Of a DNA stretch of 51,118 bases, positions 1,727-51,118 are shown piece after piece (the first letter of the stretch is position 1; each line of letters starts with the position of its first letter). The stretch comes from Girardia tigrina. Lineage: Eukaryota. The notes beneath the pieces were generated by a model that was given only the letters and a program-made list of their open reading frames with translations, had not been told where the DNA came from and did not search any database. The DNA lies in the NCBI GenBank assembly GCA_001938485.1, contig MQRK01239597.1, forward strand, positions 34,159 to 85,276. The letters are read 5' to 3'. The translations under genes were made by a program, and so were the position numbers.

Positions 1727-2914
1727 TTGGGTTGGCTAAAAAGTCATTGCGTTTTTGAGAACGTCCTAATAAAAAGTTTGAAAATATGAAACGATGTGAT
1801 AAAATTTAAATTCAATTTTATATTCTGAAACCTTAAATTTTCGGACTATGTTTATACAAAATATTAATTGATTTTGTTTTAATTTATTACTTTACCGCCA
1901 ATTCGAAATGTGCAAGTGACTCCTTAAAACTTCGACAGTGTCAATACTGGTTTTCTAAATTTCGTTCTGAAAAAATTCATCTGAAAGATGCACCACGCTC
2001 CTGTCGACCAGTTGACGTTGATGGCGACAAAATAACAGCACTGATCAAATCTAATCCACATATGACGACAAGAGAAGTTGCAGAGACTCTGGAAATATCA
2101 AAATCAAGTGTTGGAAGTCATTTAAAGAAACTTGGATTTGTCAGTAAACTCGATATGTGGTTACCACATAAACTGAAAGAAATTCATTTGGTGAAACGTA
2201 TAGACATTTGCAATTCCCTTTTGAAGCGAGAACAAAGTGATCCATTTTTAAGCGCTTGATTACGGGTGACGAAAAATGGATTGTTTACAACAATGTGGAA
2301 TGCCGACGCTCATGGACAAAACGTGGTGAGCCTGCCAAAACGATCATAAAAGCAGAAATTCATCAAAAGAAGGTTATGCTTTCCGCCTGGTGGGATTTTA
2401 AAGGATTTGTGTTTTTTGAACTCCTGCCGAGGAATAAAACCATCAATTCAGACAGATATTGTGGTCATCTGGAGAAATTGGCTCATTCAATTCAACAGGA
2501 ACGTCCTGAATTGGCAAATCGAAAAGGAGTTGTAATTCAGCATGATAACGCAGGACCGCTTACAAGTTTGACCACTCGCCAGAAACTCTTATCACTGGGT
2601 TGGGGGATTTTGCCACACTCACCGTATTCTCCAGACTTGGCCCCATCGGATTTTCACTTATTTAGATCACTGCAGAATTCCTTAAACAGAAAAACATTCG
2701 CCAGTGATGATGACATCAAATCGTTCCTAGACGGCTTTTGTGCTGATAAAGGCAAAGGTTTTTATGAATCAGGAATAATGAAGCTACCGGAAAGGTGGAA
2801 GAAAGGCATTGAAAATAATGGACAGTATATCGTGTAAAAATATTTGTGCATCCATGTCATTTTTTGATAATAAATATTTTAGTAAAAAACGCAATGACTT
2901 TTTGGCCAACCCAA
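1727..2914 (+). mobile_element. Mariner (DD34D) DNA transposon, near full length, inactive
   Basis: TIRs TTGGGTTGGCTAAAAAGTCATTGCGTTTTT / AAAAACGCAATGACTTTTTGGCCAACCCAA, with TA duplications at 1725-1726 and 2915-2916. Confidence 0.95.
1921..2837 (+). pseudogene. Mariner transposase pseudogene (N-terminus deleted, 1-nt frameshift near 2250)
   Basis: Motifs WFSKFRS, WLPHKL (WVPHEL), TGDEKW, HDNAGP and HSPYSPDLAPSDFHLF. ORFs 2062-2259 and 2256-2837 are in different frames. Confidence 0.93.
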
Positions 2915-4910: not shown

Positions 4911-5015
4911 AGTTAAATCTCCAGGTTTCACTTCAGGATTCATAATAACAACAAGTAGAATTTATTAATTATTTACAATCTTTTTAGAATACTTAAACAA
5001 ATAATAATCACAACT
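4911..5015 (-). repeat. 3' LTR of family A copy 1 (105 bp)
   Basis: Direct repeat of 9196-9300 with 5 mismatches by eye. Termini AGTT...AACT, adjacent to the PPT. Confidence 0.92.
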
Positions 5016-5025
5016 TTCCCCTCTT

Positions 5026-8000
5026 TTATAATTCGTTATTCACTTTCTTAATCCACTCAATTCTTCGACGAATTATGTTTCCATCTTTCAAATTCTGTAG
5101 TTCCAATTGGTGTGGCAATATATGTCTTAAAATTTGGTACGGTTCATCGAATGGGAAAGTGTCCTTTCTCAGTTTTGTAGGATCTTGTTTTACAAAAACT
5201 TTCTGACCATCCTCGAAATGTTGATTTGTTCTCTTCTCTCTCTCCCAATTTTCCATTCGTCTTGCCGCTTTCTCTAAATTTTCTCTGACCTTCATCTTGA
5301 TCACGTTGCTCTCTTCCATTTTAGCTATTCCTGCTGCCGCATGTAAGTTTATTTTTCTACCAAACACAACTTCGAAGGGCGAATATCCGGTCGTACTCTG
5401 AACTGAGGCATTTAGACAGAATTCTATCTTCTGAATAATTTGCCACCATGATTATTTGTCTGTGTCTCTTCTGCTTGTTACTATCATGTCTCTCACTGTT
5501 CGAATAGTTCTTTCTGCCAACCCGTTTAATTGATGTTCAAATGGGCTACTAAATCTTTGTTCGATTCCATATTTCCTGCAAAAATCTTTAAATTTTCCGC
5601 CAGTAAAACATTTTCCATTGTCTGTTAATATTGTTTTTGGCTTCCCATATCTATATATCCATTTTATCAACACGAATTGAACTATGGTGTCTTCGTTTTG
5701 AGTTTTAATCTCTGTCAAAGAGACCAATTTCGAAAACTGATCCACCATGACAAATAGATATGGGTACATGCTATTCTAGTCACCCACATATGCGATATCC
5801 ATCACGACTTGCTCTAAAAACTCGTCACTTCTTATTGGATTCAACTTGTCTTTTGTTTTTTCACTTGGAATTTTTCTGCGTATACATTCCTGACATTCTC
5901 CTATAACGATATGCACCTCTTTTGCTAAATCTGGTAGCATTAAAAAGATTTGGGATGAACTTCTTTGTCTTTTTGATACCTACATGACATAAATCTCTGT
6001 GTATTTTCCTGATGAAATCTCTTCTAATTTGCTTCGGAACCAATGGTAACACACAATTTCCTTCTTGCCTACCCCATAACCCATTCTGATAAACTAATTG
6101 GTCCTTTAGTTGTAATAACTCCTTGGTGATTTCATTCCTTTCACCCTCTGCCATCTCCTGTATTTGTTTCAACTGGTTCATCTCTGAGCACTTTTCTTGT
6201 TCGTCTTTTATCCATTGAATTGTAGACTGAATCACCACTGTATTGATCTGTTTCACCCTTGCTTTTGTTGATTTTGGTTCTTCGTGTTTTGTTTCACATT
6301 GTGCACAAACGTCGTTGTATAGCCGTGATAATCCATCTGCATTTCCATGTTCGTCACCTTTTCTATACTTCAAATCAAAGTCAAAATCCGCCATGTTTGC
6401 TAACCATGTCTGGAATTGAGGAGTTATTGGTTTGGAAGTACTCTTCATATACACTAGTGCTTTATGATCAGTTCTTGCTGTAAATCGCTTGCCATATAAA
6501 TATTGTTTGAAATGTAACATGAACTCTTGCAAAGTTAATAGTTCCTTTCTAGTCACACAGTACCCTTTTTCATGTGCAGTTAAAGTCCTCGATGCATGCA
6601 CGATTATTACTTCTTTCTCTTCTGATATCTAACTAAGAACTGCTCATATCGATCCGAATGATGCATCTGTGTCTAAGATGAAATTATTATTCGGGTTCAC
6701 AAATGCTAATATTGGTGCACCACATAGCTTTTGCTTCAATTCGTTAAAACTTCTGTCGCACTTGTCTGACCAAAAATATTTCTTTACATTTTCCGCTGCA
6801 TGCAATGTATAAAGGTGCTGCAAATTCTGCGTAATTCTTGATAAATCATCGATAGTGTAGTTACACAGATCTAAAAATGCTCGTAAATTTCGAGTACACT
6901 TTGGAATCGGAAAATTTTGAATTTCAGCCACTTCAATTTATTTGTTGAGATACCTTCTTTGTTAATTTTATGTTCCAGAAATACCAACTCCCCCACTCCG
7001 AATTAGCATTTCCCTGGATTGATTTTTAAACCTCCTTTCTTCAGTCTATTCGGTACTTCTTCTAATAATCTCATATGATCCTTCATTGATTTTGAGTAAA
7101 TTAAGACATCATCTAGATATATTACTACTCCAAAGAATAGTAAATCTTCAAATAATGAATTCATTATTCTCTGAAACGTTCCGGGTGCTGTTAAAAGTCC
7201 AAACGGTACACGGTTAAAACAATACTACTGTGTTCTTGTGCAAAACGCAGTCTTTTCTTGAGAACTTTCATCCAATGCTACTTGATGGTATGCTTTGCCT
7301 AGATCTATACTGAAAAAAATTCTGGAGCCACCCAGAGCATCCATTAACATTTGGCTGTCCGGTATTGGAAAGGAAACTTTCTTTGATACCTCATTCAATT
7401 TTATGAAATCTAAACAAATTCGAATACCTCCATCTTTCTTTGGCGTAATGATTAATTTCATTCACATTTACATTTCCGAATTATTCCTGCCTTTTCAAAT
7501 CCCTTCAGAAACCTTTGATTTGACTTTCTAAATGAATCGATTGCCTTCTTGGATTCAGAAAAATCGGTTTACCTTCTGTTTCAATTTTATGGACAACAAT
7601 ATCCTTAAATCCCAGATTATATTCATGTTTCATGAAAACATCATCATATCGCTTCACAAGGTCTTCCAGTCGTTTGTTTTGCTCTTGCAGTTTCATATCT
7701 TTCTCCACTCTCACAACTGACTTCTTGGTAGTTTTTTCAAGTTTGATTCCGAATTTATGCATGACATGAACACCACAAATGACTGCCGGTCGGATTGCTT
7801 TCACCACTAAAAAATCTACCGGATGACACTCTTCTTTCCATTTCAACTTCACTGTCATTTTTCCCAAACACTTATGGCCTTCTGAAAACGCTCCATTTAG
7901 TATAATTGGGCTCTTTTCTTATCTTGGTTGTCCGATTTCCAACCAAAGCCTCTCACTAATAACTGAAACACCCGCTCCACTATCCTACAACATTAATACA

Positions 8001-8134
8001 TTGTGAATGTTCAGCTTAACATTGCTCCACCATCTACCATCTGACTCATCTACTATCTATGCAATTCGATATTTTGGATATTTTATACCGACTCCACAGA
8101 CGAAATGCTCACCATGGAGTCTCTGGCGTTTAAA
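5026..8134 (-). pseudogene. pol: pol (PR-RT-RH-IN) pseudogene
   Basis: ORF fragments 5026-5367, 5452-5769, 5861-6601, 6644-6931, 7225-7461 and 7505-7867 are collinear pol domains separated by stops and frameshifts. Confidence 0.92.
8061..8134 (-). promoter_or_regulatory. -1 programmed ribosomal frameshift signal (U UUA AAC plus predicted pseudoknot)
   Basis: The heptamer is in the gag frame, followed by a 6-nt spacer and a 10-bp stem. The -1 frame is the protease frame. Conserved at 42978-43051. Confidence 0.82.
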
Positions 8135-9228
8135 TCATCTTCATATTCATCTTTATATGATTCCATATCCATGTTGTCTTCATTGAACACATCTTTGATA
8201 CATGCTACATTAACATTCTTAATATGATTACAGTTTCTGAACCCACGTCCACTTTTTTCACAGATTAAACAATGATTATTTAAAGGACAATCTTTTCCAC
8301 AGCAATAACAATCCCCTGTGGTTAAATGTTCCTCTTCTGGAGTTGGAAGTCTCTTTATTTTGCAATACAACTTCCTTGCTTCGTACAAAGCCGAATGCAC
8401 CGGCAATTATATTGCTGTTTATCTTCTGACATACTACAGGATCCTTTCTTAATTTTATTAAATCTTTCCGATGGTATTCTGCGTTCCGTTCTTAATATTG
8501 GTTGTCTATCGTTTGATTCATTCAATCTTGCTGTATTTCTTTTATGTTCAGGATTCTCATATCTTCTAACTTGATATTTGTCTTTCTTTTCCATTTCTAC
8601 ATACGATGTTTTGACGGATAAAACATCATTTCTTTCTTCTTTTGATATGTTGTCCTCATAAATCTTAGCTTCCGCTTTCATTTCACCCACCGATATGTTA
8701 GGTTTGAAAACAAATCGATCCTTCAGAACTTTAGATTTTATCCGCTTTTTCAAAAGTTCATTCAAAATTTCTTCATCGCTGTTTCCTAAAATTTTCAATT
8801 GTTTTCCGAACCCTTAATTTGAATGTTTCGAATCTTTCATTCTCACCTTGATAAATTTGGCTTAGTTTGTCCAATTCTTCGAACAGCGGTACTTTCTTTA
8901 TAAATGTTTTCTGGTACCAATTTTTGGATTCCACATCAGACATTGGTTTCTTATCTTCTTCTGTTGCATTCCCCCAAAGAATCTTTGCTTTGTCTATCAA
9001 CAAATAGTTACACCGTTCCGAGAATGTTAACCCAAAAAATTCTGAGAATTTGCATATGTCTCTATACCATATTTGACCTTCAGAATCCACTCCAGTGTAC
9101 TCCTTCATTTTCTTCTCGAGAGTTTCCTTAAAGATTGATGGAAGTTCTAGTTTTGGAAGCATCAAAACTTTTATTGGAACGCCAGTGTGGTCGCCATTTA
9201 AATCTTCAGGTTTCACTTCAGAATTCAT
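8083..9228 (-). pseudogene. gag: gag pseudogene (two frameshifts)
   Basis: ORFs 8773-9228, 8355-8798 and 8083-8406. Degenerate CCHC knuckles CYCCGKD.. / CLICEKSGRGFRNC. Homologous to 43000-44129. Confidence 0.85.
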
Positions 9229-9300
9229 AATAACAACAAATAGAATTTATTAATTATTTACAATCTTTTTAGAATGCTTAAACAAATAATAATCACAACT
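9196..9300 (-). repeat. 5' LTR of family A copy 1 (105 bp)
   Basis: Repeat of 4911-5015. Its last base is shared with the first T of the PBS. It contains AATAAA and the gag-frame ATG at 9228. Confidence 0.92.
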
Positions 9301-12207: not shown

Positions 12208-12731
12208 TGTGAGGAATATTTTAAATTTGGTATGTTGAAATTGGTTTGTTGAATTTTGTATGTTGAGTTTAGTATTTGGAAATGTGTTTCTCTATCCAGA
12301 TGGAAAATTGATATTTTAGATGTTCACGATAAATAATTATTCGAGTATAATTTATATTTTAAAGTACACTATAAGATATTTAAAAACATTAAAAATATAA
12401 AATCTTCATATTAAAATTTAAATAAAATAAATAGTTTAACTAAGTTTTGAATTAATTAAATGTTCTTTCTTTACATAAAATAATTTTTANNNNNNNNNNN
12501 NNNNNNNNNNNNNNNNNNNNNNNNNNNNNNNNNNNNNNNNNNNNNNNNNNNNNNNNNNNNNNNNNNNNNNNNNNNNNNNNNNNNNNNNNNNNNNNNNNNN
12601 NNNNNNNNNNNNNNNNNATTATCAATTTAGAACGATGTCGAATGACGAGAGTTTCGCTGAGAGTTGTCCAAAAGACAATTCTGATTGTAATGAAAATAAA
12701 AGTTTGAAAAGCCATGTTGGTGTTCTTAATA
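12208..12731 (+). mobile_element. Solo LTR of a Gypsy family B relative (spans an assembly gap)
   Basis: Starts TGTGAGGAATATTTT and ends TGTTCTTAATA like the other family B LTRs. 5-bp TSD ATAGG at 12203-12207 and 12732-12736. The N gap could hide internal sequence. Confidence 0.85.
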
Positions 12732-16444: not shown

Positions 16445-17600
16445 AACGTGTTGCGTCTATTACTTATTCGGATAGAAGTTGAAAAGAACATGACGAATGA
16501 AAAATGTTTTTAATCAACATTGAAAAATGTATAGGTATTTATTTTTTAATATAAGATCCACGATTTTGAACACATTTTTTCCAGCGTCTTACCAACTTCA
16601 AGAAGGCATTTTCGAATGAAATAATGGAATAAAGTCTTCAGGAATTCTTGCACTTCCTCTTTCGATTATGCCTTTAAGTTGATATGTTTATCTCGTAGCT
16701 GTTTCTTGAGATAGAGGAACAAATTAAAATCACTCGCACCTAGGTCCGATGAATAAGGAAGGTTTTTGATGTTGTGGAAACCCATCTAATAGATTTCGCT
16801 TGTAAAGAATGTACTTGTTACAAATATTATCCTGAAAAAAATAGATATTGCATTTGCGGGATTTTCGTCTAGATTGCCTGGTTTTCTTGACTTGATCGAA
16901 GTAGTAACATGAGTTAATTTTCACATCCTTGTCAGCAAAGTTTATTGAATTGTCGCTATGAAGATTACAGAAAATCGTTAGCATGAGAGATTTTTGGTTG
17001 CAAGTTGATGTTCGTAGCTTTTTTGTGCTTGTTTTATATAGGAATTTCAAGTATAAATATAAAGCTGGGTTTTTCCTCTATCACAATGCATCGCAGAAAA
17101 TATCTCAAACATGCTGCAATGTCAATAGATAAGCGTGACATGAATTGAGTCTGTTTTCACATATTTCATTTGTTAGGAAACGTGAAATGAATCGTGAAGA
17201 AAGTTTTGTCAGACCCATGGATTTTATTAAAGAATCTAAACTTGATGCGTCTGTCACATGTGACAATATTCTCCACTTTTTCATTATTTTTTTAGTAAAT
17301 AGTCAAAGATCTTCTGGTATATTCTGGTATTGGATGAGATTTAATCATGCTATACATCGCTCAAGTACTCAATAATTTCCTTCACTAACAACTTCTTCAA
17401 AACATGAATCTTTATTAGACTACTAAATTCCACGGGAGAACACATGATTAGGAGGAGATATTGAATGTCCTCAAAAATCAGACCACATCCAGATGCTACT
17501 ATAAAAAATTGTATTAAATTAACTGTAATGCTCAAAGAATATATCACAAAAAAGCAATTAAATTCATATATTGTTACATCTTTATTTAATGGGCGCACTA

Positions 17601-17603
<3 letters not shown>
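16445..17603 (-). mobile_element. Decayed mariner-like element
   Basis: Minus-strand motifs LTKLSSRFI, LMLTIFC, INSCYYFDQV, YFFQDN and SSDLGASDFNLFLYLKKQL. Degenerate inverted ends acgtgttgcgtctatta / taatgggcgcactacg. Confidence 0.65.

Positions 17604-17641
<38 letters not shown>
17604..17641. repeat. (TA)n microsatellite
   Basis: Seen directly. Similar tracts lie at ~101-134 (TA/GA), 9777, 12130, 22170, 25569, 26167, 31832 and 46133, several bordering N gaps. Confidence 0.95.
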
Positions 17642-17644
<3 letters not shown>

Positions 17645-18037
17645 GGATAAAAACAAGACGACACGTTTCGAGATAATAAAAATCCCATCATCATGTAACA
17701 AAATGTACCAAGCAGGTACACTATATGGAAACTTGCCGAAAATAAATAAAGTTTATCCAATAAATTATTGGATGAAAATAACTTTATTTCACTTTTCCTT
17801 AAAATTAAGAAAAATGCAATCTAGAAGAGAAAATACAAGGAATAGAAAAAATGAACGAAAAGAATACACAAACATACAGTACAGAGGTCGGATTGGATAT
17901 ACGAATAGAAGAGACCAAGTAGCAGATTTAGAAGACTTCGATGACGAGTGGGAAAGAATGTCGGAAAGATCGAATAAAAGAGGAGGTCTAACAAGAAGAG
18001 AAAATATTACAAACATGAAAAATTTCAGAGACGAACA

Positions 18038-18079
18038 GGGAAACGAGGAGGCACGGTCACAGGGAGAAGTGATCAGTGC
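18038..18079 (+). promoter_or_regulatory. -1 frameshift signal (G GGA AAC plus bulged hairpin)
   Basis: The heptamer is in the gag frame, followed by a 6-nt spacer and a 10-bp hairpin. The -1 frame is open into the protease ORF 18101-18394. Confidence 0.8.
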
Positions 18080-21000
18080 ACTTCACTAAGAAACGAATGT
18101 ATGTGTATGTTTGACTGTATGAATGATTGCTTGTATGATGACGTATGTTGTTTATTGGACACTGTTGAAAATATTCCTCAAGAATTGTGTATATTAGATG
18201 GTGAAAAAGAAATACACAATGAGAAATGTGACATTTTGATCACAGAAAAAGATGAAGAAAGAAGCACAGAGATAATGAAAATATCAAAGTTTAAAATAGA
18301 ATATGAAGAACTGAAAGGCAGACCTAGTATAGGATTTCAAATAAAGCATAAAAAATTAAGATGTCTACTGGATACGGGAGCACGAGTCAATTAAATTAGA
18401 CGTACTCAAAAATATGAAAAATACCAAAATAAAGGAGACAAAAAGACGTATACACTGTGCTTACGATTCAGAACTAGTAAATTACGGTATAGTACAACTA
18501 AAGATTAAGATTGAAAGAATACAGAAAACAGTGGATTTTTTTGTGGTTAGAGATTTGGAACCCGAAATGAATGCAGGAATAGATTTCCTAAATAAATTCA
18601 GCATAAAACTAAAGAAACATGATACAACAAAGGAGTGCTGATAATACGAGATACTTTAAATGGCGGAGACAGACTTAAAAGAATAAGGGAAATATACGCA
18701 GATAAGATAGATGAACCATTAATGAAATTAATAATATAATATAAAACGATATTTATGGCGGACAAATGGGATATAGGGAAGACCACACTAACTAAGCATA
18801 AAATTTAAACGCAAGGAGAATCAATATTGGTAAAACCGTACCGAGAGCCAAAACACTTTGAGGAAAAACTAGATGATATTACCAAGAGTTACGAGGAAAA
18901 TGATATCATTGAAAAATGCAGTTCGCCGTGGAATTTCACGCTAGTATGCGTATGGAAAAAAGACAAACATGATATCCGAGTATGTGTTGATTTTCTACAA
19001 TTAAATAAAGTTACAATCGGTCCAGCATTTCCAATACTAAATGTAGAAGAAATGCTAAATACATTAAATGGAGCGAAATACTTCAGCACGATCGACTTGT
19101 GGAGTGCATATCATCAAGTTGAATTGGAGAACGATTCAAAATTAAAAACTGCATTTTCGACAAAGAACGGCCAATATTGATTTAAAAGAATGCCATTCGG
19201 AATTGCAGCTGCCCCAGCGACATTTCAAGAACTAATGACAAGAGTGTTAGGAGAATTAAACTGGAAAGAAACAGTTGTATATCTGGACGATATTCTAATC
19301 TTCGCAAAAGACAAAGAAGAACATTTCAGACGAGTCGAACACATATTTCAAAAGATTAAAGAATTGGGCCTTCGGATAAACCCTGAAAAGTGTCAGTTCA
19401 TGGTAGAAAAGACAAAATTTTTAGGATATGTCGTGAGCAAAGATGGTATAGAGACAGATAAAACGAAAATTGAAGCAATCAACAAATTTCAAAATCATGC
19501 ATTAAACATTTAAGAAGTTGTCTTGGGTCTAATGAACTATTATAGAAAATTTTTGAATGATTATGCAAAATATTCAAAAATTCTGGAAGGACTATGTGGA
19601 AAAAATAAAGAAAAAAAATTGACATGAACAAAGGAATGTGACGAGGCATTTAAGACATTAAACGATAAAATGACAAAAACACCGATATTAGCATATGCAG
19701 ATTTCGAAAAGGAGTTTATACTGGATACAGACTCTAGTTTTGGTACAATCGGGGCAGTACTGGCACAGAACGATGCATACGGAAGGGAAAGAGTAATTGC
19801 ATATTGATCCTACAAGATGAACAAACACGAACTGGGATACTGTATTAAAAGGAAAGAATTATTGGCAATCTATTACTTTACCCAACACTTCAAACATTTC
19901 TTATACGGAAAGTAGTTTCTATTTAGGACGGACCATAAGGCCATCACATTCATGATGACAACGAAGAACCCAATAACTCCACAATTCCAAACTTGGATAA
20001 ACTTCCTTAGTAGACTAGACATGAGGATGGAATACCGCAAGGGCGAAAAACACACTAATGCAGACGCAATGTCGAGAAATACATGTGAACTATGTGTACA
20101 ATGTCAGACAATGCACGATGACGCTAAAAAAGGAAAAGTTAAAACTAGAATCCTAGCATTAACAGAAGATTCAGAAGAGTTCATTTGGCAGACGAATGAT
20201 GAAGAAATAGAACAGATTAAAGAAAATATTAAAATGGGAAAGACAAAAGAATGGCTACTGAAAAACAATATCGTGACTACAAGAGATAACAAATATTGGA
20301 TCCCTATGAAGAAGAGAACAGACTTTATAGAAGATATACATAAAATGTTATGCCATGCAGGAAGTAAGAAAGTATACAATTACATAAAAGATGATTTCGA
20401 GATGTATGAAATAAGATAACAGATAAAGAAAATCGTACAAAGTTGCGAAAACTGCCAGAAAAGGAAGACGCTGACGGAAAAAACGAAAGAAAAACACATT
20501 AAACAATCTGCCGACGAACCCTTTCAAAGAAATTACATGGACTTTTGCGGACCATTCAGAAGGACTAGGAATGGATACCAATACATTTTAGCAATAATCG
20601 ATCAATTTAGTAGGTACAATAGCTTGACCGCAGTAGCACACCAAGACGAGAAGACTACACGAAAGGCACTTTTAGAGAAATGGATTTGGAAATTCGGACT
20701 TCCAAAAGAGATACACATTGATAGAGGAAAAACTTTCGAATCAGCACTCTTTAAAGAAAAGACGAAAAAATGTAAGACGGAGATAGTCTATTCAAGCCCT
20801 TATCACCACAACACTAATGAGATCATAGAAAGACACTTTAGAATAATAATAGACGCCATAAATATACGATTAAAGGATGAAATGCATAGAGATTGGGTAG
20901 AAATGTTGGTAGAAATAGAATTCATGTTAAACGGTGCAATTCAAGCAACAACAGGAATATCTCCAGCCGAGATAATCTTCGGAAGAAAACTAAGACATTG

Positions 21001-21249
21001 GTGGAAAACTACAACAGAAGGAAAAAGTGGAGAAAAAGAAAATAAAAATATAACTGAAACAAAGCGAATATTTCAGGTCGGAGAAAGTCTTGATAAAGAA
21101 AATTAACCCATCAAAAGATGATGACCGTTATATGAGACCAGCTAAAATTATAAAGCAAAGACACGAAAGAAGTTATTAGATACAACTATAGGATGGCAGG
21201 ATCCTGATCAGAAATGTAGAATGGCTAAAGCCATTTAAACTGAGGGGGA

Positions 21250-21711
21250 TGTGAGGAATATTTTAATTTGTTTGAATGTGTATATGTATGGATGTTGTAT
21301 GCTGATTTAAGTATGTTGAATTTAGAATGGTGATTATCCTACCCAGATGGAAATTGGTATTTTTTTTATTAAATTTAAAGTGATTGACTATTCGAACACA
21401 ATTAAAATTAAGTTTAATATTTTTTAGTAAAATTTAAATTAAATGCATTTTTAATAATTTGATGACATTTTTATTATTTTAAGATTTATTGAAAAATAGT
21501 AAAAATTATTATTTTTTTAATTAATATTTTTAGAGGCTAAATATTTTAAAAAATAATTTAGAAAAATTGTTCGAATAATCATGATTAAAATCAGAAAAAA
21601 GAAAACGAATTAGAAGGATGACAAATGATGAAAGACTTTCTGAGAGTCGTAATGACTCTAAATGTGATTGTAATAAACATTCAAACGAGACTTGTTTAAA
21701 TGTTCTTAATA
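21250..21711 (+). repeat. 3' LTR of family B (462 bp, TG...TA)
   Basis: Follows the PPT and is closely similar over its full length to the solo LTR at 47279-47740. Confidence 0.93.
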
Positions 21712-26204: not shown

Positions 26205-26462
26205 AATTTAAATGGTCCAAGAGTACTTCTCCAATAACAATAAAATTCGCAATTTTTTTATATTTCTATTAAACAAAGAATCTAAAATAAAAAATATATA
26301 AATAAAATATAAAGAAGTATAATATTATTGGTTAAAATCTATTGAAATTATTTATTAATTTTTGATTGGATCAATGAAAAAAAAGTTTATTAAAGTTATA
26401 AACAACAAAACTTTTGATTTCAGTAAAACAAAATAATATTTCAAGAATATCAAACATACATT

Positions 26463-27599
26463 ATGAATTGCTCATTTTCAATTAGTTGTCAAAATAAAAC
26501 GATACGTTATTTTTCTATATCATTTTATACAGTGTTAATTATCATTGGAACCTTTGGAAACATTTTTGCAGTTTTAGTGATTCGATTCACTCGAACGATG
26601 GGCAACTCGAAGAATGTATTCACAGCTCTCGCCATCGCCGACTCTTTGACTTTGTGGATTAATCCTTTACGATATTGGATTAGTTTCCTATTTCAGTTTG
26701 AAATTCGTACTTCGAGTGATGGTTTGTGTAAGTTCCATACGTTTATGAGTTACTCTTCGAGAGACATTGCAACTTGGATTTTATGTCTGCTAACCTTTGA
26801 AAGGTTTATTGTCGCTTGTGCCCCGTACAAGTCAAAGATCATTTGGCAAGGTTATAAAATCATACTGGTGTGGATCGTGATAATTTCCGCATTATTAGCA
26901 AAAAACAGTCCCGTTATTTGGCAGTTGAAAATCATGACTTCCAAAACCAAACTCTGTTTTTGTGATACTTCTGATGTTGTTTTTAGACATTGGTTTTTCT
27001 ACTTGGATATAATTGTTTATAGTATTGTCCCATCGGGTCTTTTACTGATTTTCAATTTGGGTATTTTAAAAGCCCTTAGAAAAGCAAAAGCTTACCGATT
27101 AGAAGCTTGTCGAGAGAACTCCTGTTCAACCACAGTTCATAACTTAACCCTTAAAAGTCGTTATATAACCAAAAGCAGTTCAAGAAAACAAAATCATGGT
27201 AAAAAACCCATTAACCTTACCAATCGTTTACTAATTCCTGTGTCCATTTTTCACATGTTTACGTCAATGCCCTTATGTATATTCTCAATTTTAGAAGCCA
27301 ACTTGAAATGGAAAGATAATGCAGATTCAAAGATTGTTTATTTTGCATTTTGCACTGGTCCCTTTCTTGCAATGATTACTGCGTGTAATAATGGAATCAA
27401 CTTTCTTCTCTACTTCTTGAGTTCAATTACGTTCCGTAGAAATTCAAAGGTGGTTTTATTAAAAATCTTTCAATTCTATCGATCTCCAAACAATGAAGAA
27501 AGACTCTTTCTTGAGCAAAATTATACGATTACTCAACTAAGAACACGAATCCCAACAAATAAAGATGATAATCAAGATACTTTGAAGAAAGACATCTGA
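26463..27599 (+). CDS. Rhodopsin-family (class A) GPCR, peptide-receptor-like orphan, 378 aa, single coding exon
   Basis: Intact ORF with 7 hydrophobic segments: TM1 GTFGN, TM2 LAIADS, TM3 C...LTFERF, TM5 IVP..LL..N, TM6 TSMP, TM7 INFLLY, helix 8 FR. N-glycosylation sequons NCS and NKT. TTTCAG acceptor-like site ending at 26423. Confidence 0.93.
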   Translation: MNCSFSISCQNKTIRYFSISFYTVLIIIGTFGNIFAVLVIRFTRTMGNSKNVFTALAIADSLTLWINPLRYWISFLFQFEIRTSSDGLCKFHTFMSYSSRDIATWILCLLTFERFIVACAPYKSKIIWQGYKIILVWIVIISALLAKNSPVIWQLKIMTSKTKLCFCDTSDVVFRHWFFYLDIIVYSIVPSGLLLIFNLGILKALRKAKAYRLEACRENSCSTTVHNLTLKSRYITKSSSRKQNHGKKPINLTNRLLIPVSIFHMFTSMPLCIFSILEANLKWKDNADSKIVYFAFCTGPFLAMITACNNGINFLLYFLSSITFRRNSKVVLLKIFQFYRSPNNEERLFLEQNYTITQLRTRIPTNKDDNQDTLKKDI

Positions 27600-28790: not shown

Positions 28791-30200
28791 GTCATTCTTT
28801 TTTAATAATTCATTAATAGAGTATGTAGAATTCAAAATGCTTTAATTTTGTGTCTCATTTCCAAGGTTTTCAATGCGTAACAAAATTAATTCACCTTAAT
28901 TTCTAAGTTTTATTTAGACTCTCTTATGAATATAACATGATGTCATTTCAATGTATGTGATGTTACAATCATTACTTATATTGCTTTTAAGCAAGATCCG
29001 AGAACAGTAATAACGGTTATATATGTTTATATGTGTAAATTTTTATTGAATATTCTTTTTTCAATCCAAAATAACATCAGATCACTTATATCTTGGACAA
29101 TTGTATTAAAGAACAATCCTATTATATGTATGCTACATCCACTTCAAAAATTAGAATAGACATTCGTCGTCGTCGACTTTGCTCATTGAATTACTTTCCA
29201 CAAATTCCCGATTAATGAATTGAATTCTCGTTCAACTGAATTGTTCATTAAGGAAAACTTTATATTTTGAAGTTAGTAAAATTTTTAACAGAACCTCTCT
29301 CGTCATATGTTGTTAGTTGTTAAATCTGTATTGATAAACATAATGCATTAACTACTCAAATTATGACGGGTTCGAGTAGAGAATTTATAAAATATAAGTC
29401 TGAAAAGAGAGGTGATTGACAATAATATTATTGTTCGTGATACCTTCAACAGGGTAACTGACAATTAATCTCTTACAGATTCAGATTGTAATTTATAATA
29501 ATATATATATGATTTATACTTCTGCAGAAACTTTAAATTGCAAATATATTTTAATGATAATATATTTTATGAATTTGGTGGGGATCCATAAAACAATATA
29601 ACTCCGGCTGACCTCTTCAATCAGTCCCGCCCGATCCTTTCATCCTTATGCTTTCTGAAAATAAAATTTGATAAATAAAAAGAAAACTATATTTCCATTT
29701 GTTATTTAAATAAAACTTATATAAAATAATTACAAATCTTTAATTCTCATCAAATTTATATTAAGAAATAATAAATATTCTTGATTACAATAGTTTTATG
29801 AAGTACGATTACCATTTTTTTAATGTAAAAAATACTTTTATAAATATATCAAACTGTTATTTGCAGTGAACTACTGTTTGTGGTTCAAGTAAGGGGCGAT
29901 GTTTGAATGGTGAGTACCTTGCAATTGTTGAGTTTTTGTGTCGCGAAATTGAAAATTCAGGTTGAGCTCGTCATTAGGTTCTTATTAATGTGGAAAATAG
30001 AGTCCATTATTAGTTCACATTTTGAGATTTTTAATATTAGATAAATTTTGAAATTGATTTCGATTGAGTCTTAATTTGAGTTTTGTTGTCGATTTTAAAT
30101 GCTTCATTTGTACATAAAAAAATAAAATTACAAAAATACAGTAGTTCCAAAGAATAAATGTAAAAAATGTAATCTTTTGTTAAATAACAGAAGGAATTAA

Positions 30201-30664
30201 AACACGGGAAAATTCACCCGGTCCGAACACTGTGAGGAATGACAGATTGATAGCTCTTTCTTGATTCGGTGGGTGGTAATGCATGGCCGTTCTTAGTTGG
30301 TAGAGCAATTTGTCTGGTTAATTTCGTTAACGAACGAGACTCTCACCTGCTAAATAGTACATTTGTGTCAAATCGCAAATTCTGATTTCTTAGAGGAATA
30401 AATAGCGTTTAGCTAAATGAAATGGAGCAATAGCAGGTCTCTGATGCCCTTATATGTCCGGGTTTGCACACACACTACAATGGCAGTACCAGCCAGTTTT
30501 ATTCCTCGCTAGAAATGGCCGGGTAAACTGCTGAATCACTGTAGTTTCGGGAATAGTGGATTGAAATTATCCCACTTGAACGAGGAATTCCTAGTAAGCG
30601 CAAGTCACTAGCTTGCGCTGATTATGTTCCTGCCTTTTGTACACACCGTCCGTCGCTACTACCG
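30201..30664 (+). pseudogene. 18S rRNA gene fragment (3' part), orphan pseudogene
   Basis: Conserved SSU blocks AACACGGGAA, GACAGATTGATAGCTCTTTCTTGATTC, GCATGGCCGTTCTTAGTTGGT, AACGAACGAGAC, GAACGAGGAATTCCTAGTAAGCGC and TTGTACACACCG, with many substitutions at normally invariant sites. Confidence 0.95.
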
Positions 30665-41336: not shown

Positions 41337-44225
41337 AGTTAAGATATTCGACTACATTAAGACACTTGACAATTCAAAATTTATTAATTTGACACCAATA
41401 GTTAATTTAAACAAACCTTCATTAATATTTCCATAATTTCCCCCTCTGACATTTGAGGTTCATATCTTCTTAAGCCATTCAATTTGTCTTCGTACCTGTC
41501 AACCATCTGCTTGATTTTGTAACTCAAGTTGATGAGTGATATATGTGTTATAATTTTAAATGTGCCTTCAAATCGGATCGCATCCTTCTTTTGTTTTTGA
41601 GGATTTATCTTTACCATAACCTGTTGACCATCTTCAAAATTTCTCTTCGTTCTCTTCTCTCCCTCCCACTGTTCCATATGGTTTGCTGCTCTTTCCACAT
41701 TTTCTTTCACGATCTTTTTAATATCTTCTCCCTTTTCCGTCAGTGACACTCCTCCAGCAGCGTGCAAATTTATTTTCCGTTTAAAAACAATTTCAAACGG
41801 CAAAATCCGGTTGTACTTTGTACCATCGCATTAAGCGAAAACTCAATTTTGGGAATTATTTACTACCACATCTGTTTAACCTTCTCTCTATTGGTTGTCA
41901 CCAACATATCTCTCACTGTCCGAATATATCGTTCTGGGAATCCATTGGATTGATGCTGGAATGGACTACTACACCGATGTTCAATCCCATGTTTTTGACA
42001 GAATTCCTTGAACTTCGTACCCGTAAAATACGTTCCATTATCTGTTAAAATTCCTTTTTTTTATCAAATCTATAAATCCATTTAACCAGATTACATCGAA
42101 TTACAATATTTTTGGATTGCGTTCTGATTTCCGTCAAACTCACTAGTTTTGAGAATTGATCAACTATCACTAACAAGTACGAATAATTTGAATTTCTATT
42201 TCAAATGAAAGCATGGTGATCCATAAAGAGCATCAAATAACATCTGACTATCCGGCATCGGAAATGAAACCCTCTTAGCCACTTCATTTCACTTTCTAAA
42301 ATCCAGAGACATCCGGATTCCACCATCCTTCTTTCATCCTTCTGTGAACCAATGGCGAATTCCAATCGCTTTAACATTTTCTAATAAAACCCGCGATTTC
42401 CAATCGATGCAACACATCTTCCACTTTCTTTTCCAAGTGTATGGATTGCCTTCTAGGGTTCAAAAATATTTGTTTACTATCCGTCTCAATTCTGTGAACT
42501 AGCACCTCTGTAAATCCTAGATCCTATTCATGTTTCATGAATACATCTTCATATCGAACCACGACTTCTTCCAACTCTTTACACACTTTTGCGGATTCCA
42601 TATTATCTCCAACATATTTAAATTTCTGCCTTTTCCTTGTGGTTTTCTTCTTTTATTAATTTCAGCTTAAATTTCTTGATTGCATCGATTCCTTTGATAA
42701 TCTATGGTCTAATCTCCTTGACCAAAACTAATTCAACCTTCTGCGACTCGACTTCCACTCGAAAACAATCATTATTTTACCTAAACATCTATGACTTTTC
42801 GAAAAAGCTCTGTTCAAAATAATCCCACGTGGAACCATTTTTGGTTGCCCAATCTTTTTCCATTCATTCTCACTAATTACTGAGACACCCGCACCACTGT
42901 CCCACAACATCGAGATCACTTGAACTCTGATTCGCACTTCATTCCACCATCTTCCATCTGTGCAGACCTTCATATCCGCACTTCGTTTTTCTTTCGCATT
43001 TATATCGATTCCACTGACGAAATGCTCACAATGGAACCGTTGGCATTTAAATCTTCCTCCAAATTTTCTCCTTGAATTTCCCGATCTCCTTTATATGTTT
43101 CTCTGATACATATCAGATTCAACTATCGATTCTAGTAACACTGACGGAAACCATGTCCGCTCTTTCGATATATTAGGCGATTTCTTTTGGTATGTCCATG
43201 TTTTCCACAACAATAACAATCTCCTTTCAATAATATTTCTTCCTCAGGTTGTGGGAGTCCCTTTACCCGGCAGTACAATTTTTTGCTTGAAACCACGCTG
43301 ATTGAACTGGTGTTACAACTTGTTGAGACGGTTTGGAGACCATAATTGATTGAAGTCCCCCAGTTACCCCCTGTCGCCCACTGAACTGTTCTACAGGCCG
43401 TCGGTCTGTTGTTTCTTTGAATTTGGCCTGGCTGTTTCTGAATTTCTGAAAAGATACTGTATCCTTGTATTGATTTATTTTCTGAATTACTTCTGCAAAT
43501 GATTGCTTTCTCGTCATAACAGCAACTGATTCTTCTCTTGTTATATTATTTTCATAAATTATGGCTTTGTCCCGCATCTCTTCGATCGGCATTCTCGGTT
43601 TGAATACAAACCTCTCCTTCAGCACCTGGGATCGTATTCTTTTTCGTAGTAACTCTTCTACGATGTATTTACTTCGTGCCTGTAACTTTTCCACCGCTTC
43701 TCTGACTCTCAGTTCGAAAACAAAAAAAAATCATTTTCTTTTTGTTCTATATTACTTACCGCTTCAAGATATTCTAAAACTGAGCTCTTCTTCGTAAACA
43801 TCTCCATAAGCCACTGCTTGGTCTCCTCATCTGACACTGCTTTCCTATCTTCTTTGAAATTTTACCATAGAGTCTCCGCCTGCTCTGTCAACATGCCGTC
43901 GAACAATGTCATGAATGATATTCCCATACATTGAGTCCGTTGGCACATATCTGCAAACAAGGATCCTGCTTCTTCCGTAGATTCCATTGAAAGGCCTCAG
44001 TTTCTTGTTGATCGCATCGGTTAATGCTTTCGGCAGTTCCAATTTCAGTATTGATTGGATGATTTTCACTCCGTTTCATGGAAGTTCTTCTTGTTTGGCG
44101 TGGTCGCCAGTTAAGATATTCGACTTCATTAAGGCACTTGACAATTCAAAATTTATTAATATAACACCAATAGTTAATTTAAAATCTTTATTAATAAGTC
44201 GTATTTTATTAATATTTCCATAACT
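41337..44225 (-). mobile_element. Ty3/Gypsy family A copy 2, internally deleted (2889 bp)
   Basis: LTRs at 41337-41438 and 44109-44225, PBS TGGCGACCACG, PPT AGAGGGGGA and TTTTT flanks. gag, protease MLWDSGAGVS and the start of RT are joined near 42200 directly to the integrase core (DQFSKLVSL). Confidence 0.92.
42978..43051 (-). promoter_or_regulatory. -1 frameshift signal (U UUA AAU plus predicted pseudoknot)
   Basis: Same architecture as 8061-8134. The -1 frame is open into the protease ORF 42728-42973. Confidence 0.82.
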
Positions 44226-46182: not shown

Positions 46183-47278
46183 NNNNNNNNNNNNNNNNNN
46201 NNNNNNNNNNNNNNNNNNNNNNNNNNNNNNNNTATATATATATATAATTGGAATTAAATTCCAATTCAAAAATTTATTTTTATTTCCATCTTGAACAGTA
46301 CTCTATTGAGAAAGATGCTGTCTTCTGCTTTTGCTGTCGAAAATTCTCATAGCCCGGCTCTGCTGGAGAAAGTGTTTTCTGAACAGGTGGATTCCGAAAT
46401 TGGAAATCAACTTTGGAAAAGGGAAAAAGTTTTCAAAAGCATGATTCTTCTGCTGACCTAATCAATGCCATGGAACGATGGAAGGAGAGGCAGCTGCGAT
46501 GTGAAAGAGGAGTGGAAGTTTGAACTTTGATTAATGAAACACAACTCAAGAACAACCTTTACTATGTCGACGCAATTGTTGATATTGTGAAGTTTCTTGT
46601 GATAAATGAATTAGCCTTTCGTGGTGACAGTTTCAGTAGGAATGACATTGAGGAGGATGAGAAACTTCCAAATGGCCTCTTTTTATGTCTTTTCGAATAC
46701 ACTATTAAGAAAAATCCTGATCTGGATCGAATCAATAAAACAATTCCAACATTTGCCACCTAGAATTTAAAATGAAATTATCGCGTTAATGGGATTAATG
46801 GTACATGAGTCAATTGTAAAGAAGTGTAATTCTGATGATGTCGAATATTTTACACTGAAGGTGTATGGTACCAAAGATCGAACGGGGTCTGAAAATGTGT
46901 CGATTACCATTAGATTTTTCTCAGCAGGACAACCTCAGGAGCACTTAATCTGCATTTCTCGAACAATTTTCACGAAACCAAAACTTTTTAAATATTGAAG
47001 AGCTAAAGACATTAGCGAATTTGTGTGGCGTGGATATAAACAAAACCCAACATGAGTATGAAACTGCAAAGATATTCCTATTGAAGACGACTAATACTGT
47101 GACATACGTTCATCAGTTAGTGCAAGAATTATACTTTTATCGAGAGGCATTTCCATCTGTGTATCGTCTTGCAGTTTCGGCACTCACACTCGGTTCTTCA
47201 ACTGCCACATGTGAGGCGAGTTTTAGTACTTTATCTCGTGTTCTAACTCCCTTTCGTACATCTATGACGCATTCTCGC

Positions 47279-47740
47279 TGTGAGGAATATTTTAATTTGT
47301 TTGAATGTGTAAATTTATGGATGCGGTATGTTGATTTAAGTATGTTGAATTTAGAATGGTGATTCTCCCACCCAGATGGAAATTGGTATTTTTTATTTAA
47401 ATTTAAAGTGATTGACTATTCGAACACAACTAAAATTAAGTTTAATATTTTTTAGTAAAATTTAAATTAAATGCATTTTTAATAATTTGATGACATTTTT
47501 ATTATTTGAAGATTTATTGAGAAAATGGTAAAAAATATTATTTTTTTAATTAATATTTTTAGAGGCTAAATATTTTAAAAAATCATTTAAAAAAATTTTT
47601 CGAATAATCATGATTAAAAATAGAAATAAGAAAACCAATTAGAAGGATGACAAACGATGAAAGACTTTCTGAGAGTCATAATGACTCTCAATGTGATTGT
47701 AATAAACATTCAAACGAGACTTGTTTAAATGTTCTTAATA
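47279..47740 (+). mobile_element. Solo LTR of Gypsy family B (462 bp) nested in the hAT transposase
   Basis: 5-bp TSD CTCGC at 47274-47278 and 47741-47745. Removing it restores ...SMTHSR|KANLVLLSF...RRLQLF*. Confidence 0.95.
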
Positions 47741-48863: not shown

Positions 48864-50745
48864 TGTGAGGAATATTTTGAATATTTTGAATGTTTTGTGT
48901 TTGAATGTGTATGTTGATTTGGAAATATGTATCTCCTACCCAGATGGATGATTAATATTTGAATTCTTATTATCTAAAAATATGTCATGTTAAAATTTAT
49001 TTTTAATTTCAAATAATTTTAAAATTTTAAATAAGTTACACCAAAGCCCCTATGCGTCTAATCGCTTTTGCGTCGATTGATTTTTTGCCATATAAAATTA
49101 TAGGTAGATATATTGTAATAGTCTTTCTGATCAATATTACCACATATTCGTTATGCGTCGAAACTCATTTAGCGTCTCAACTTTCTCAACCGAATAGAGA
49201 CGCAAAGCGGGGATTTGGTGTAATCAATTTTTACAATTTTTAATAAATAAATCAAATTAATATTTTTTAAATAATTCATTATTATTTTAATTATTATCCA
49301 ATAAGTTTTGAGTAAATATTTTAATAAAATATTTATTTATCCATTTGCTAAAAAAATAATAAGAATTAATTCATTAATCAATTTTGTTTAGAATGCAATA
49401 GTACGAAAGTTTTGACAAAGATTGTCTTAAGGACAATCAAAATTGTTGTTTAAATAAAAATATGAAAACTCAAACTTGTGTTCTTAATATGGAGACACAC
49501 GACCACGTGACTCCAAATGTCAAAGGTCCAGAAACATTAGACGGATCTGAGACAAAAGTGAAAGCATTTATAAAGAATTTCAACAGATACGCGAAGATAA
49601 TGGTATTTTCGGAGGAAAGGAAAATCCTTTTAATCACGCCATACATGACTCCGGAGGCAATAATTAAATAGGAAACAGCACCCAGTGAAACATGTGAAGA
49701 AAAGTTAAGAGCAGCGTTCTCCAAGGAAAAAACCGTACTAGATTTAATGAAAGAAATTTTAGATTTGAGAATTGGCTCCAGCGATCCCACAATAATATTT
49801 AGAAAGGCAGACGAACTAATCAAGAAATTGGTAGAGAAAAAGTTGGGTATGAAACAACTATCGAATTTAGTATACGCTAATTTGATAGATGATGATGATG
49901 TACAAGAACAAATATCCATTCAAGGTATCACGAAATCTAATGAGATTGAAGAAATACAAACAAGAAGGTTCGAACATAAGAAAAAGAAAAGAAACGAACC
50001 AGTGGCAGCATATAATACAAAAAGAGAAAATTAATGGAAAACAGTGGAAAATAAAAGCAGAACAACAAGACCACGGAATAGAGAAATTCCAGAAGATACA
50101 AGAATAAATTTTAAAGTCAGGTAAATTACTTGTTGGGCATGTCATGAAGAAGGACATGTTAGAAGAGATTGTCCAGATGTGACATGTAATCCTTGCAACA
50201 AAAAAGGACACATAAGAACACAATGATATGAAAACCCGAATAGGTTTAAGGAACGCGAGTAATGCAAACGGGATAATGGAAGAAATCGATGGGAAAATGT
50301 TAGGAAAAATTACTCGAATCAAAGATAGAGAGACCGGCCGACATACACAAATAGGAAATATTCAGTAGCGGAATTGGACGAATTAGATGATGAATTGTAT
50401 GGATGAGATGACTCTTCAAGACAGGGCTATACCAACGAAACCAATAGAAAAGAAGACTCTAAAAGACAGGAATATCCTAGAGGTTACAGAAAATTCAAAG
50501 GTGATCAGAGAAACGAAGATGCACGATCACAAGGAGAGGTGATCAGTGTGCTTCATTAGAAAGTCAATGCAGATGTATGTTTGATTGTACGTATGAATGT
50601 GTGTGTGATTGCATGTTTGATTGTGTGTATGAAAATATTCGTCTATAAATGTGTGAATTAGATAGTTTGAATAAAGAAAATTGTGAAAAATGTGATAGCA
50701 TGAATTTAGAAAAAGAAAGAAAGGAAAGAAATATTACAATATATA
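48864..50745 (+). mobile_element. Gypsy family B relative: 5' LTR (48864-49489), PBS-like site, gag and frameshift region
   Basis: LTR TGTGAGGAATATTTT...TGTTCTTAATA, then TGGAGACACAC. gag has CWACHEEGHVRRDC and CNPCNKKGH knuckles. Its C-terminus NEDARSQGEVISVLH* is homologous to 18040-18089. Confidence 0.9.
49039..49220. mobile_element. MITE (182 bp) inserted in the LTR
   Basis: Imperfect TIRs CACCAAAGCCCCTATGCGTCT / AGACGCAAAGCGGGGATTTGGTG flanked by TA. Absent from the related LTRs. Confidence 0.75.
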
Positions 50746-51118
50746 CAGGGTGGCCGAAAAGTCCCAGGACACTATACATGTATTTTTAATAAAACACAAT
50801 ATTTTTTAATGAAATACACAGAAACATATATATTCAACAAAAAAGAGAACTTTATTAGAAANNNNNNNNNNNNNNNNTAGAGTAATTTAGTGGTCTAGGG
50901 GATCAGTATGTTGGCCCTCATTGTTTTTGCACAATTCCATTCGCCTCCAGGTTCTTTGTGCCATTTTTTTGAGAGAATTCCTTGATACGCTAGCAAAACC
51001 TGCAATAATCGCATGCTTCAGCTGATCAATGGTTTCGTATCTAATACCAGAAACTTGACCTTTAATTAAACCCCATAATGAGTTGTCTGGAGTGGTTAAG
51101 TCGGGGCTTCGTGGTGGC
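50746..51118 (-). mobile_element. Tc1/mariner-superfamily element (rosa/DD41D-like), 3' end, inserted into the Gypsy element
   Basis: TA-CAGGGTGGCCGAAAAGTC TIR. The minus-strand frame 51118-50887 reads PPRSPDLTTPDNSLWGLIKGQV...ELCKNNEGQH*. Confidence 0.85.

Follow-up and report, generated by a model that had tools for sequence, protein, structure and literature searches.

We conclude that a lineage of compact (about 4.4–4.7 kb) Ty3/gypsy elements, two of whose copies lie in the 51,118-nucleotide stretch of Girardia tigrina DNA analysed here (the window), probably carries a programmed −1 frameshift cassette with an H-type pseudoknot at the junction of gag and pol, a reading to which we assign a probability of about 0.6. 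That −1 frameshifting and the first stem of the cassette (stem 1) operate in this lineage is very probable; the H-type pseudoknot, that is, the frameshift with a second stem (stem 2) included, we would place somewhat above even odds. As far as sequence can tell, the features of a canonical −1 signal are present: a heptamer in phase, a downstream ORF in the −1 frame and a stem at 6 nt, within the allowed 5–9.

Under the mechanism that we propose, ribosomes translating gag would arrive at U UUA AAY, or in sister families at A AAA AAY, carrying tRNA-Asn together with tRNA-Leu (or tRNA-Lys), and would there be stalled by a 10-bp stem 6 nt downstream, the loop of which would be paired with an octamer 21 nt further on to form the pseudoknot. 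By analogy with established −1 frameshifting, the structure would block the mRNA entry channel while the tandem tRNAs slip; a minority of ribosomes would move back one base and make Gag-Pol, and the remainder would stop 14–15 codons later and make Gag. The cassette would in this way explain how the family sets its ratio of Gag to Gag-Pol. The frames, the heptamer and a conserved potential of stem 1 to pair are seen in the sequences; slippage itself, its rate and stem 2 are the parts of this scheme that we infer.

The window has the base composition of AT-rich eukaryotic DNA (GC 14–40%), with assembly gaps and several transposon relics, and the two copies are made up as follows.

4911..9300, minus strand: copy 1, a decayed Ty3/gypsy LTR retrotransposon of ~4.4 kb (LTR pair, Gag and Pol matches, Pfam rve and RT_RNaseH)
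9196..9300, minus strand: copy 1 5' LTR, starting AGTT
9196-9187, minus strand: copy 1 PBS-like TGGCGACCAC, directly after the 5' LTR, so labelled from its position and TGG start
4911..5015, minus strand: copy 1 3' LTR, ending AACT, with a purine tract in front
8083..9228, minus strand: copy 1 gag (capsid and two CCHC knuckles), frame-broken (tblastn of the intact Gag P0001, 84–89%)
5026..8134, minus strand: copy 1 pol (PR-RT-RH-IN), entered in the −1 frame, with stops and frame breaks (tblastn of the intact Pol P0194, 86–91%)
41337..44225, minus strand: copy 2, of a diverged Ty3/gypsy family, with an internal deletion that removed RNase H and most of RT (LTR pair)

The elements are Ty3/gypsy (Metaviridae), as seen in their paired LTRs, PBS, purine tract, PR-RT-RH-IN order, Ty3-closest RT, and capsid fold with CCHC knuckles. 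Both copies are dead, copy 1 having stops and frame breaks in gag and pol and copy 2 having lost RNase H entirely and RT for the most part (residues 230–735 of P0194 find no match within it). The LTRs of copy 1 (4913-5015 and 9198-9300) show 4 differences per 103 bases, and its gag stop is a TAA at 8085-8083; those of copy 2 lie at 41337-41437 and 44109-44225, followed by the same PBS-like TGGCGACCAC. Because the two copies are only about 67–72% alike in DNA over their alignable parts, they represent two families and not two insertions of one, and the Gag and protease of copy 2 are about 40–50% identical to those of the intact copy-1 family. The LTRs of both copies are very short (about 100–115 bp), are bordered by A-rich near-duplications of 4–5 bp, and end in AGTT...AACT rather than TG...CA; AGT-type ends are, we believe, reminiscent of insect gypsy-group elements. 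The ATG that starts gag lies inside the LTR, in its U5 end, and the frame runs on through the LTR end and the PBS (9228-9187 and 44129-44099, both minus strand), an arrangement that presumably resembles that of Ty1; all 18 full-length Gags examined (P0001 and 17 others) start M-x(4-11)-T-G-[DEG]-[HQP].

The cassette itself has the same layout in both copies.

8134-8128, minus strand: copy 1 slippery heptamer U UUA AAC, in gag phase
8122..8127, minus strand: copy 1 spacer, 6 nt
8121-8112 with 8099-8090, minus strand: copy 1 stem 1, 10 bp, closing a 12-nt loop
8101..8108, minus strand: copy 1 proposed stem 2, 5' strand, inside the loop (loop 12/12 identical between copies)
8061..8068, minus strand: copy 1 proposed stem 2, 3' strand (the octamer), 21 nt past stem 1
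42978..43051, minus strand: copy 2 cassette, same geometry as copy 1
43051-43045, minus strand: copy 2 heptamer U UUA AAU
43038-43029 with 43016-43007, minus strand: copy 2 stem 1
43002-43000, minus strand: copy 2 gag stop
42985-42978, minus strand: copy 2 octamer

A first-pass annotation had proposed this structure, and every base and position that it quoted for the two copies was found on the minus strand where it had been placed; the identical loop and the protease reading frame, −1 relative to gag in both copies, likewise held. The gag stop falls just behind stem 1. Directly before the copy 1 heptamer there is a TGA in the −1 frame (8137-8135), so that the overlap is about 50 nt (52) and the heptamer is its first feature; it is also the only canonical heptamer in that overlap, and the copy 2 heptamer is the only in-phase one in its own. 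From the heptamer to the protease motif the −1 frame is open in copy 2. A pol-frame stop of copy 1 just past the octamer, at 8059-8057, is private when set against the reads of four (X1, X16, X17 and X20) of the 24 listed sequencing runs, compared over 7880-8330: a different base accounts for 115,364 of the 116,279 depth in X1 and for the whole depth in X20, X16 and X17. Of these runs X17 is an RNA library, and we guess X16 and X20 to be RNA as well.

All 10 stem-1 pairs form in both copies, seven of them invariant, one changed on one side and two changed on both sides. The covariation claimed for the structure is thus real as two swaps in stem 1, but it reaches no significance in two sequences (it is equalled in 120 of 500 shuffles) and is absent from stem 2. 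This lack of significance is one of two points in favour of chance as the explanation, by which heptamers and hairpins would be common in AT-rich DNA and the copies would agree by descent only; the other is that the window holds 1,245 X XXY YYZ heptamers on its two strands, 29 of them with an unbroken 10-bp stem 5–9 nt downstream. However, the two cassettes are the first and second of these 29 by stem energy (−13.6 and −11.6; next, −10.6), and they stand in phase at the gag-pol overlap. The copy 1 hairpin has a z score of −4.15 and that of copy 2 one of −4.42, with none of 200 shuffles as good in either case. The 84-nt regions are weaker than the hairpins, 6 and 23 of 200 shuffles folding equally well, and the nested minimum-energy fold of the copy 1 region differs from stem 1, using positions at which copy 1 departs from the other copies. 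Rfam gave no match to a frameshift family: at the gathering threshold the window yields SSU rRNA only, and 7900-8300 yields six matches at E 3–9, none of them to such a family.

Intact relatives were found among proteins. The ORF search with the copy 1 Gag gave one cluster among 30 candidates, headed by an intact Gag of 390 aa (P0001); among the 15 members listed 11 reach the tail, of which nine have the same stop, one continues for another 10 residues, and the last is a deletion chimera. The search with the copy 1 RT gave 93 proteins, with a single cluster in the clade and the others at most 50% identical. It contains an intact Pol of 990 aa (P0194) that is 93% identical to the RT of the window; six of its 15 members have this length and none is fused to Gag. 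Contigs of 7,558 and 4,471 occur in both the Gag and the Pol lists with full-length proteins and are probably the same contigs. Since full-length Gag and Pol are separate and, among the members listed, not fused, intact elements in nature have two ORFs, and not the single frame for gag and pol that the first-pass annotation had named as evidence against its proposal. P0194 shows the Pfam order PR-RT-RH-IN, and its best PDB match is Ty3 Gag-Pol (E 1.4e-112). The Gag of the lineage carries two Cx2Cx4Hx4C knuckles; its feature matches are to Retrotrans_gag and zf-CCHC at 0.95–0.96, with Pfam matches below threshold only, and the top folds for its structure model are dArc, Arc, PNMA2 and the Ty3 capsid (best E 5.5e-3, none under 1e-3). 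A search with the copy 2 protease gave no relative among 40 candidates, and none of the Pol members of the RT cluster extends upstream of the catalytic motif. At the DNA level, viral contigs gave only two loci, from 14-residue knuckle matches on large contigs, and prokaryote genomes gave no match; six loci matched in metagenome contigs were rejected as relatives, all being unrelated zinc-knuckle proteins.

The strongest evidence for the heptamer and stem 1 comes from the tails of diverged Gags. A protein search of 1.84 billion representatives returned 38 proteins at E up to 1e-10, and the clade members are stand-alone Gags of 359–434 aa where full-length, 28–45% identical in alignment A1. We screened 45 proteins (P0001 and P0016–P0059), and 23 of these combined the clade's second knuckle with a matching tail; P0022, with a degenerate tail, was exchanged for its cluster mate P0175, and P0051 was added. 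The counts below are for 25 tails. P0045, which ends before the tail, was left out, as were others that are partial or consist of unrelated knuckle repeats. Because the tail filter required I-[ST]-x-[VL], the invariance of those residues is partly selected (with one miss, P0022); the tests of heptamer and stem played no part in it. The tails read x-[L/K]-N-x7-I-S-x-V, with the stop 14 or 15 residues after the Asn, and 24 of 25 fit U UUA AAY (9) or A AAA AAY (15) at one fixed place, against a background of 127 of 2,675 tripeptides (4.7%). The residue before Leu is never one whose codons end only in purines, and the residue before Lys never one whose codons end only in pyrimidines (3/0 versus 0/8; Fisher p 0.006). 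That 24 of 25 diverged tails should keep the heptamer in one of two forms largely refutes chance, which we now regard as scarcely credible.

Stem 1 leaves its imprint as well, since seven of its 10 pairs join first or second codon positions and can be read from protein. Watson-Crick pairs at codon-fixed positions number 128, against a mean of 117.5 when the 3' arms are permuted (6 of 20,000), and with G.U included 161 of 175 cases are pairable, against 157.2 permuted (315 of 20,000). At one stem-1 pair Ser/Glu in seven tails and Pro/Gly in 11 correspond to U-A versus C-G, and in 24 of 25 tails the residue at the stem's top has a codon starting with G (Val, Ala, Gly or Glu, against 29% in the background), which fits the C of the Ser opposite. 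The register is specific: 6.5 of 10 stem-1 pairs are expected in that of the window and 3.0–4.3 when it is slid. In five tails no more than 5 of 7 fixed pairs fit; four of these tails have Gln-Pro and, by eye, a stem shifted by one base. Kinship among the tails inflates these pair counts; a Gag tree from which the tail was left out puts the swap at four changes and the heptamer switch at three, and stem-1 swaps amount to one independent pair on well-supported branches and four on all, for which the sign test is not significant. The tail is disordered in the structure model (pLDDT under 50 at residues 351–390), so that the fold does not explain its conservation.

One could still envision Pol being made without a frameshift, by splicing or by initiation at a Met two codons before the catalytic Asp, with the Gag tail kept for a protein reason and its Ile-Ser-Ser-Val perhaps a protease site. 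Gene callers do start Pol at that Met in nine of the 15 cluster members, the Met is present in both copies of the window, and ISSV resembles, by eye, the V/I-x-small-V/I border motifs VLAV, VVCI and INTV of Gag and Pol. However, a protease begun at this Met would lack the strand that precedes the catalytic Asp; this region is conserved between the copies in the −1 frame, and the retropepsin structure requires it. A protein reason leaves unexplained both the third-base rule before Leu or Lys and the register-specific pairing. Contigs of X16 and X17 read straight through the gag-pol junction, which makes splicing unlikely, and X16, X17 and X20 have no joint listed (in each case contigs only, at low depth). 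We therefore consider synthesis of Pol without frameshifting improbable, although a role of the tail in protease cleavage could coexist with frameshifting.

The frameshift with stem 1 thus draws on 25 tails, and the question becomes whether stem 2 completes a pseudoknot. Seven of the stem 2 pairs are invariant between the two copies; the eighth position, U.G in copy 2, is U.U in copy 1, in keeping with the one G-U and one mismatch noted at first pass, and stem 2 has no double change. An H-type geometry is feasible (stem 1 of 10 bp, loop 1 of 3 nt, stem 2 of 7–8 bp, loop 2 of 0–1 nt and loop 3 of 20–21 nt). The duplex of loop and octamer is equalled by 74 of 2,000 shuffles for copy 1 and 39 of 2,000 for copy 2 (P about 0.02–0.04), and the loop pairs equally well with 45 of 414 windows of the copy 1 element itself and 4 of 262 of the copy 2 element. 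The 3' strand of stem 2 lies past the gag stop and before the Pol start used by gene callers, and is therefore invisible in proteins; the read-through Gag P0014 would allow the octamer, though with a damaged loop, and adds nothing independent. Rough stem energies with an approximate loop penalty place the knot near or slightly below the extended hairpin, a figure that we do not count as evidence. The support for stem 2 is suggestive only, and modest. As for the first-pass claim that a functional pseudoknot sets the ratio of Gag to Gag-Pol, its frameshift and stem 1 are supported by the tails, whereas its stem 2 is plausible and shows no compensatory change.

Alternatively, a real −1 frameshift could be stimulated by stem 1 alone, with the gag stop just behind it, a signal HIV-like in kind; the loop would then be conserved through dual coding, and the octamer match would be inherited chance. 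The loop bases do encode the near-invariant Ile-Ser of the Gag tail, and the overlap of gag and pol is dual-coding, which by itself conserves bases. The strong evidence of the tails bears on the heptamer and on stem 1, the scores of stem 2 are modest and it lacks a double change, and the ViennaRNA folds of both copies (−15.0 and −13.0) add 3 bp to stem 1 at the expense of the loop, all of which would fit a simple hairpin. That competing extension, however, is impossible in 11 of the 25 tails, and with the loop open the 10-bp hairpins are worth just −12.6 and −10.6 kcal/mol. Moreover, the octamer forms an island of identity in sequence that codes for pol only (the copies share 7 of its 8 bases, and 19 of 42 in its flanks; Fisher p 0.05), and loop 3 is constant in length although its sequence has drifted (11 of 21 identical). 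We thus regard stem 1 acting alone as possible, at odds well short of even, and prefer the frameshift with the pseudoknot.

Variation among the sequencing runs bears on the same elements. The copy-1 family is high-copy (2,574 contigs in X1), and the last base of the heptamer (8128) is U in 62% of the depth in X1 and in all of it in X20 and X17. The heptamer UUUAAAC, to which attention had been drawn as that of coronaviruses, is present in copy 1, but the form ending in U is commoner in the runs; since UUUAAAC is the minority allele, the likeness is incidental. Cassette variants among the rows listed comprise three in loop 3, one at the last base of the heptamer and one that keeps its stem-1 pair; among the variants listed (all but 30 rows), none falls in the loop or octamer across the 2,574 contigs of X1. 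A piece of the copy-2 family in X20 has the same heptamer and two octamer differences, with one single-sided change of a stem-2 pair, and pairs at 7 of 8 positions by eye; because it too has U.U, at the fourth position, the mismatch is probably native. Identical variant letters recur in runs labelled as three organisms and a leaf-litter metatranscriptome, which indicates that one family is nearly identical across them, as might result from recent spread, shared host material or horizontal transfer.

A further reading, which we offer tentatively and consider unlikely, is that compact Ty3/gypsy elements of a hitherto undescribed clade have a single rigid recoding cassette in common, with a loop more invariant than plain base pairing would demand. 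There would then have been at least three switches between U UUA AAY and A AAA AAY, with stem-1 pairs free to swap and the loop behind Ile-Ser almost invariant across Gags ~30% identical; the loop might form the base triples of a new pseudoknot subtype, be the site of a frameshift-tuning factor or carry an overlaid protease cut. Were this so, some 25 natural variants would be a ready library for matching slippery sites to stimulators.

The mechanism proposed is a textbook one, known from PEG10, PNMA3 and the −1 signals of retroviruses, and is only modestly surprising; the cassette of this lineage would be a new case of it. The MMTV gag-pro signal uses A AAA AAC. The likeness to the signals of MMTV and of IBV is a convergence of mechanism and not homology. 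According to PMC5009743, a 2003 survey counted, among 51 animal retroelements, 28 whose pol lies in the −1 frame, mostly of Drosophila, many of them with classical heptamers; the most shift-prone sites include A AAA AAC and U UUA AAC, with spacers of 5–9 nt. The present lineage is like those animal Ty3/gypsy signals in having pol in the −1 frame and a classical heptamer at the overlap. It also resembles the IBV or coronavirus type, as described in PMC5009743, in its shift-prone heptamer, spacer within 5–9 nt, long stem 1 and short loop 1; unlike IBV, which needs 11 bp in stem 1, it has 10, one short, and its common allele ends in U and not in C. Among CsRn1-like AgCR elements, nine of 14 overlap by −1 (PMC2582038). 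Membership of the CsRn1 clade was nevertheless rejected: that clade, according to the same source, has a CHCC Gag signature and a tRNA-Trp PBS, whereas the present lineage has two CCHC knuckles (Cx2Cx4Hx4C) and a TGGCGACCA PBS.

The closest tested parallels concern host genes. [quoted passage not shown] Like these (same sources), the elements described here have a Ty3/gypsy origin and a heptamer with what we propose to be a pseudoknot, and would make a Gag and a trans-frame product. PEG10 and PNMA3 are host genes with tested structures, whereas the present cassette is predicted, in a mobile high-copy family. The tested Ty3/gypsy-derived pseudoknot stimulators that we found in the literature belong to domesticated mammalian genes, and a conserved pseudoknot stimulator in mobile invertebrate elements would be a candidate for a new Rfam family. 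In the open-access literature (subscription papers being outside the scope of the search) we found no description of this lineage or its signal. For annotators, the finding means that gene callers, by starting Pol at the Met next to the catalytic Asp, cut the protease short, and a frameshift cassette that can be read from Gag tails alone offers a reusable search where databases hold proteins only.

The window contains other mobile elements and genes, some of them as follows.

1837-2837, plus strand: mariner-type transposase (Transposase_1), flanked by inverted repeats near 1709 and 2931
46949-47362, plus strand: hAT dimerisation fragment
26427-27599, plus strand: rhodopsin-family GPCR ORF, single exon, 390 aa
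45368-45901, minus strand: tubulin exon

A third, more distant Gypsy family at 17600-21200 (plus strand), with a Pol about 40% identical, has a −1 signal of its own: an in-phase G GGA AAC at 18038-18044, a 6-nt spacer, a bulged 14-bp hairpin at 18051-18079 (−11.9 kcal/mol), a gag stop at 18087-18089 and pol in the −1 frame. In a partial second copy of this family (50250-50760, plus strand) the heptamer at 50508 is mutated and the hairpin kept. An isolated, degraded 18S rRNA fragment (Rfam RF01960) at 30163-30625 (plus strand) is apparently a pseudogene and may be of flatworm type. Finally, 21250-21711 and 47279-47740 are 95% identical copies of a 460-bp dispersed repeat that has shorter relatives at 12208, 14781 and 48864 and is probably a non-autonomous element.
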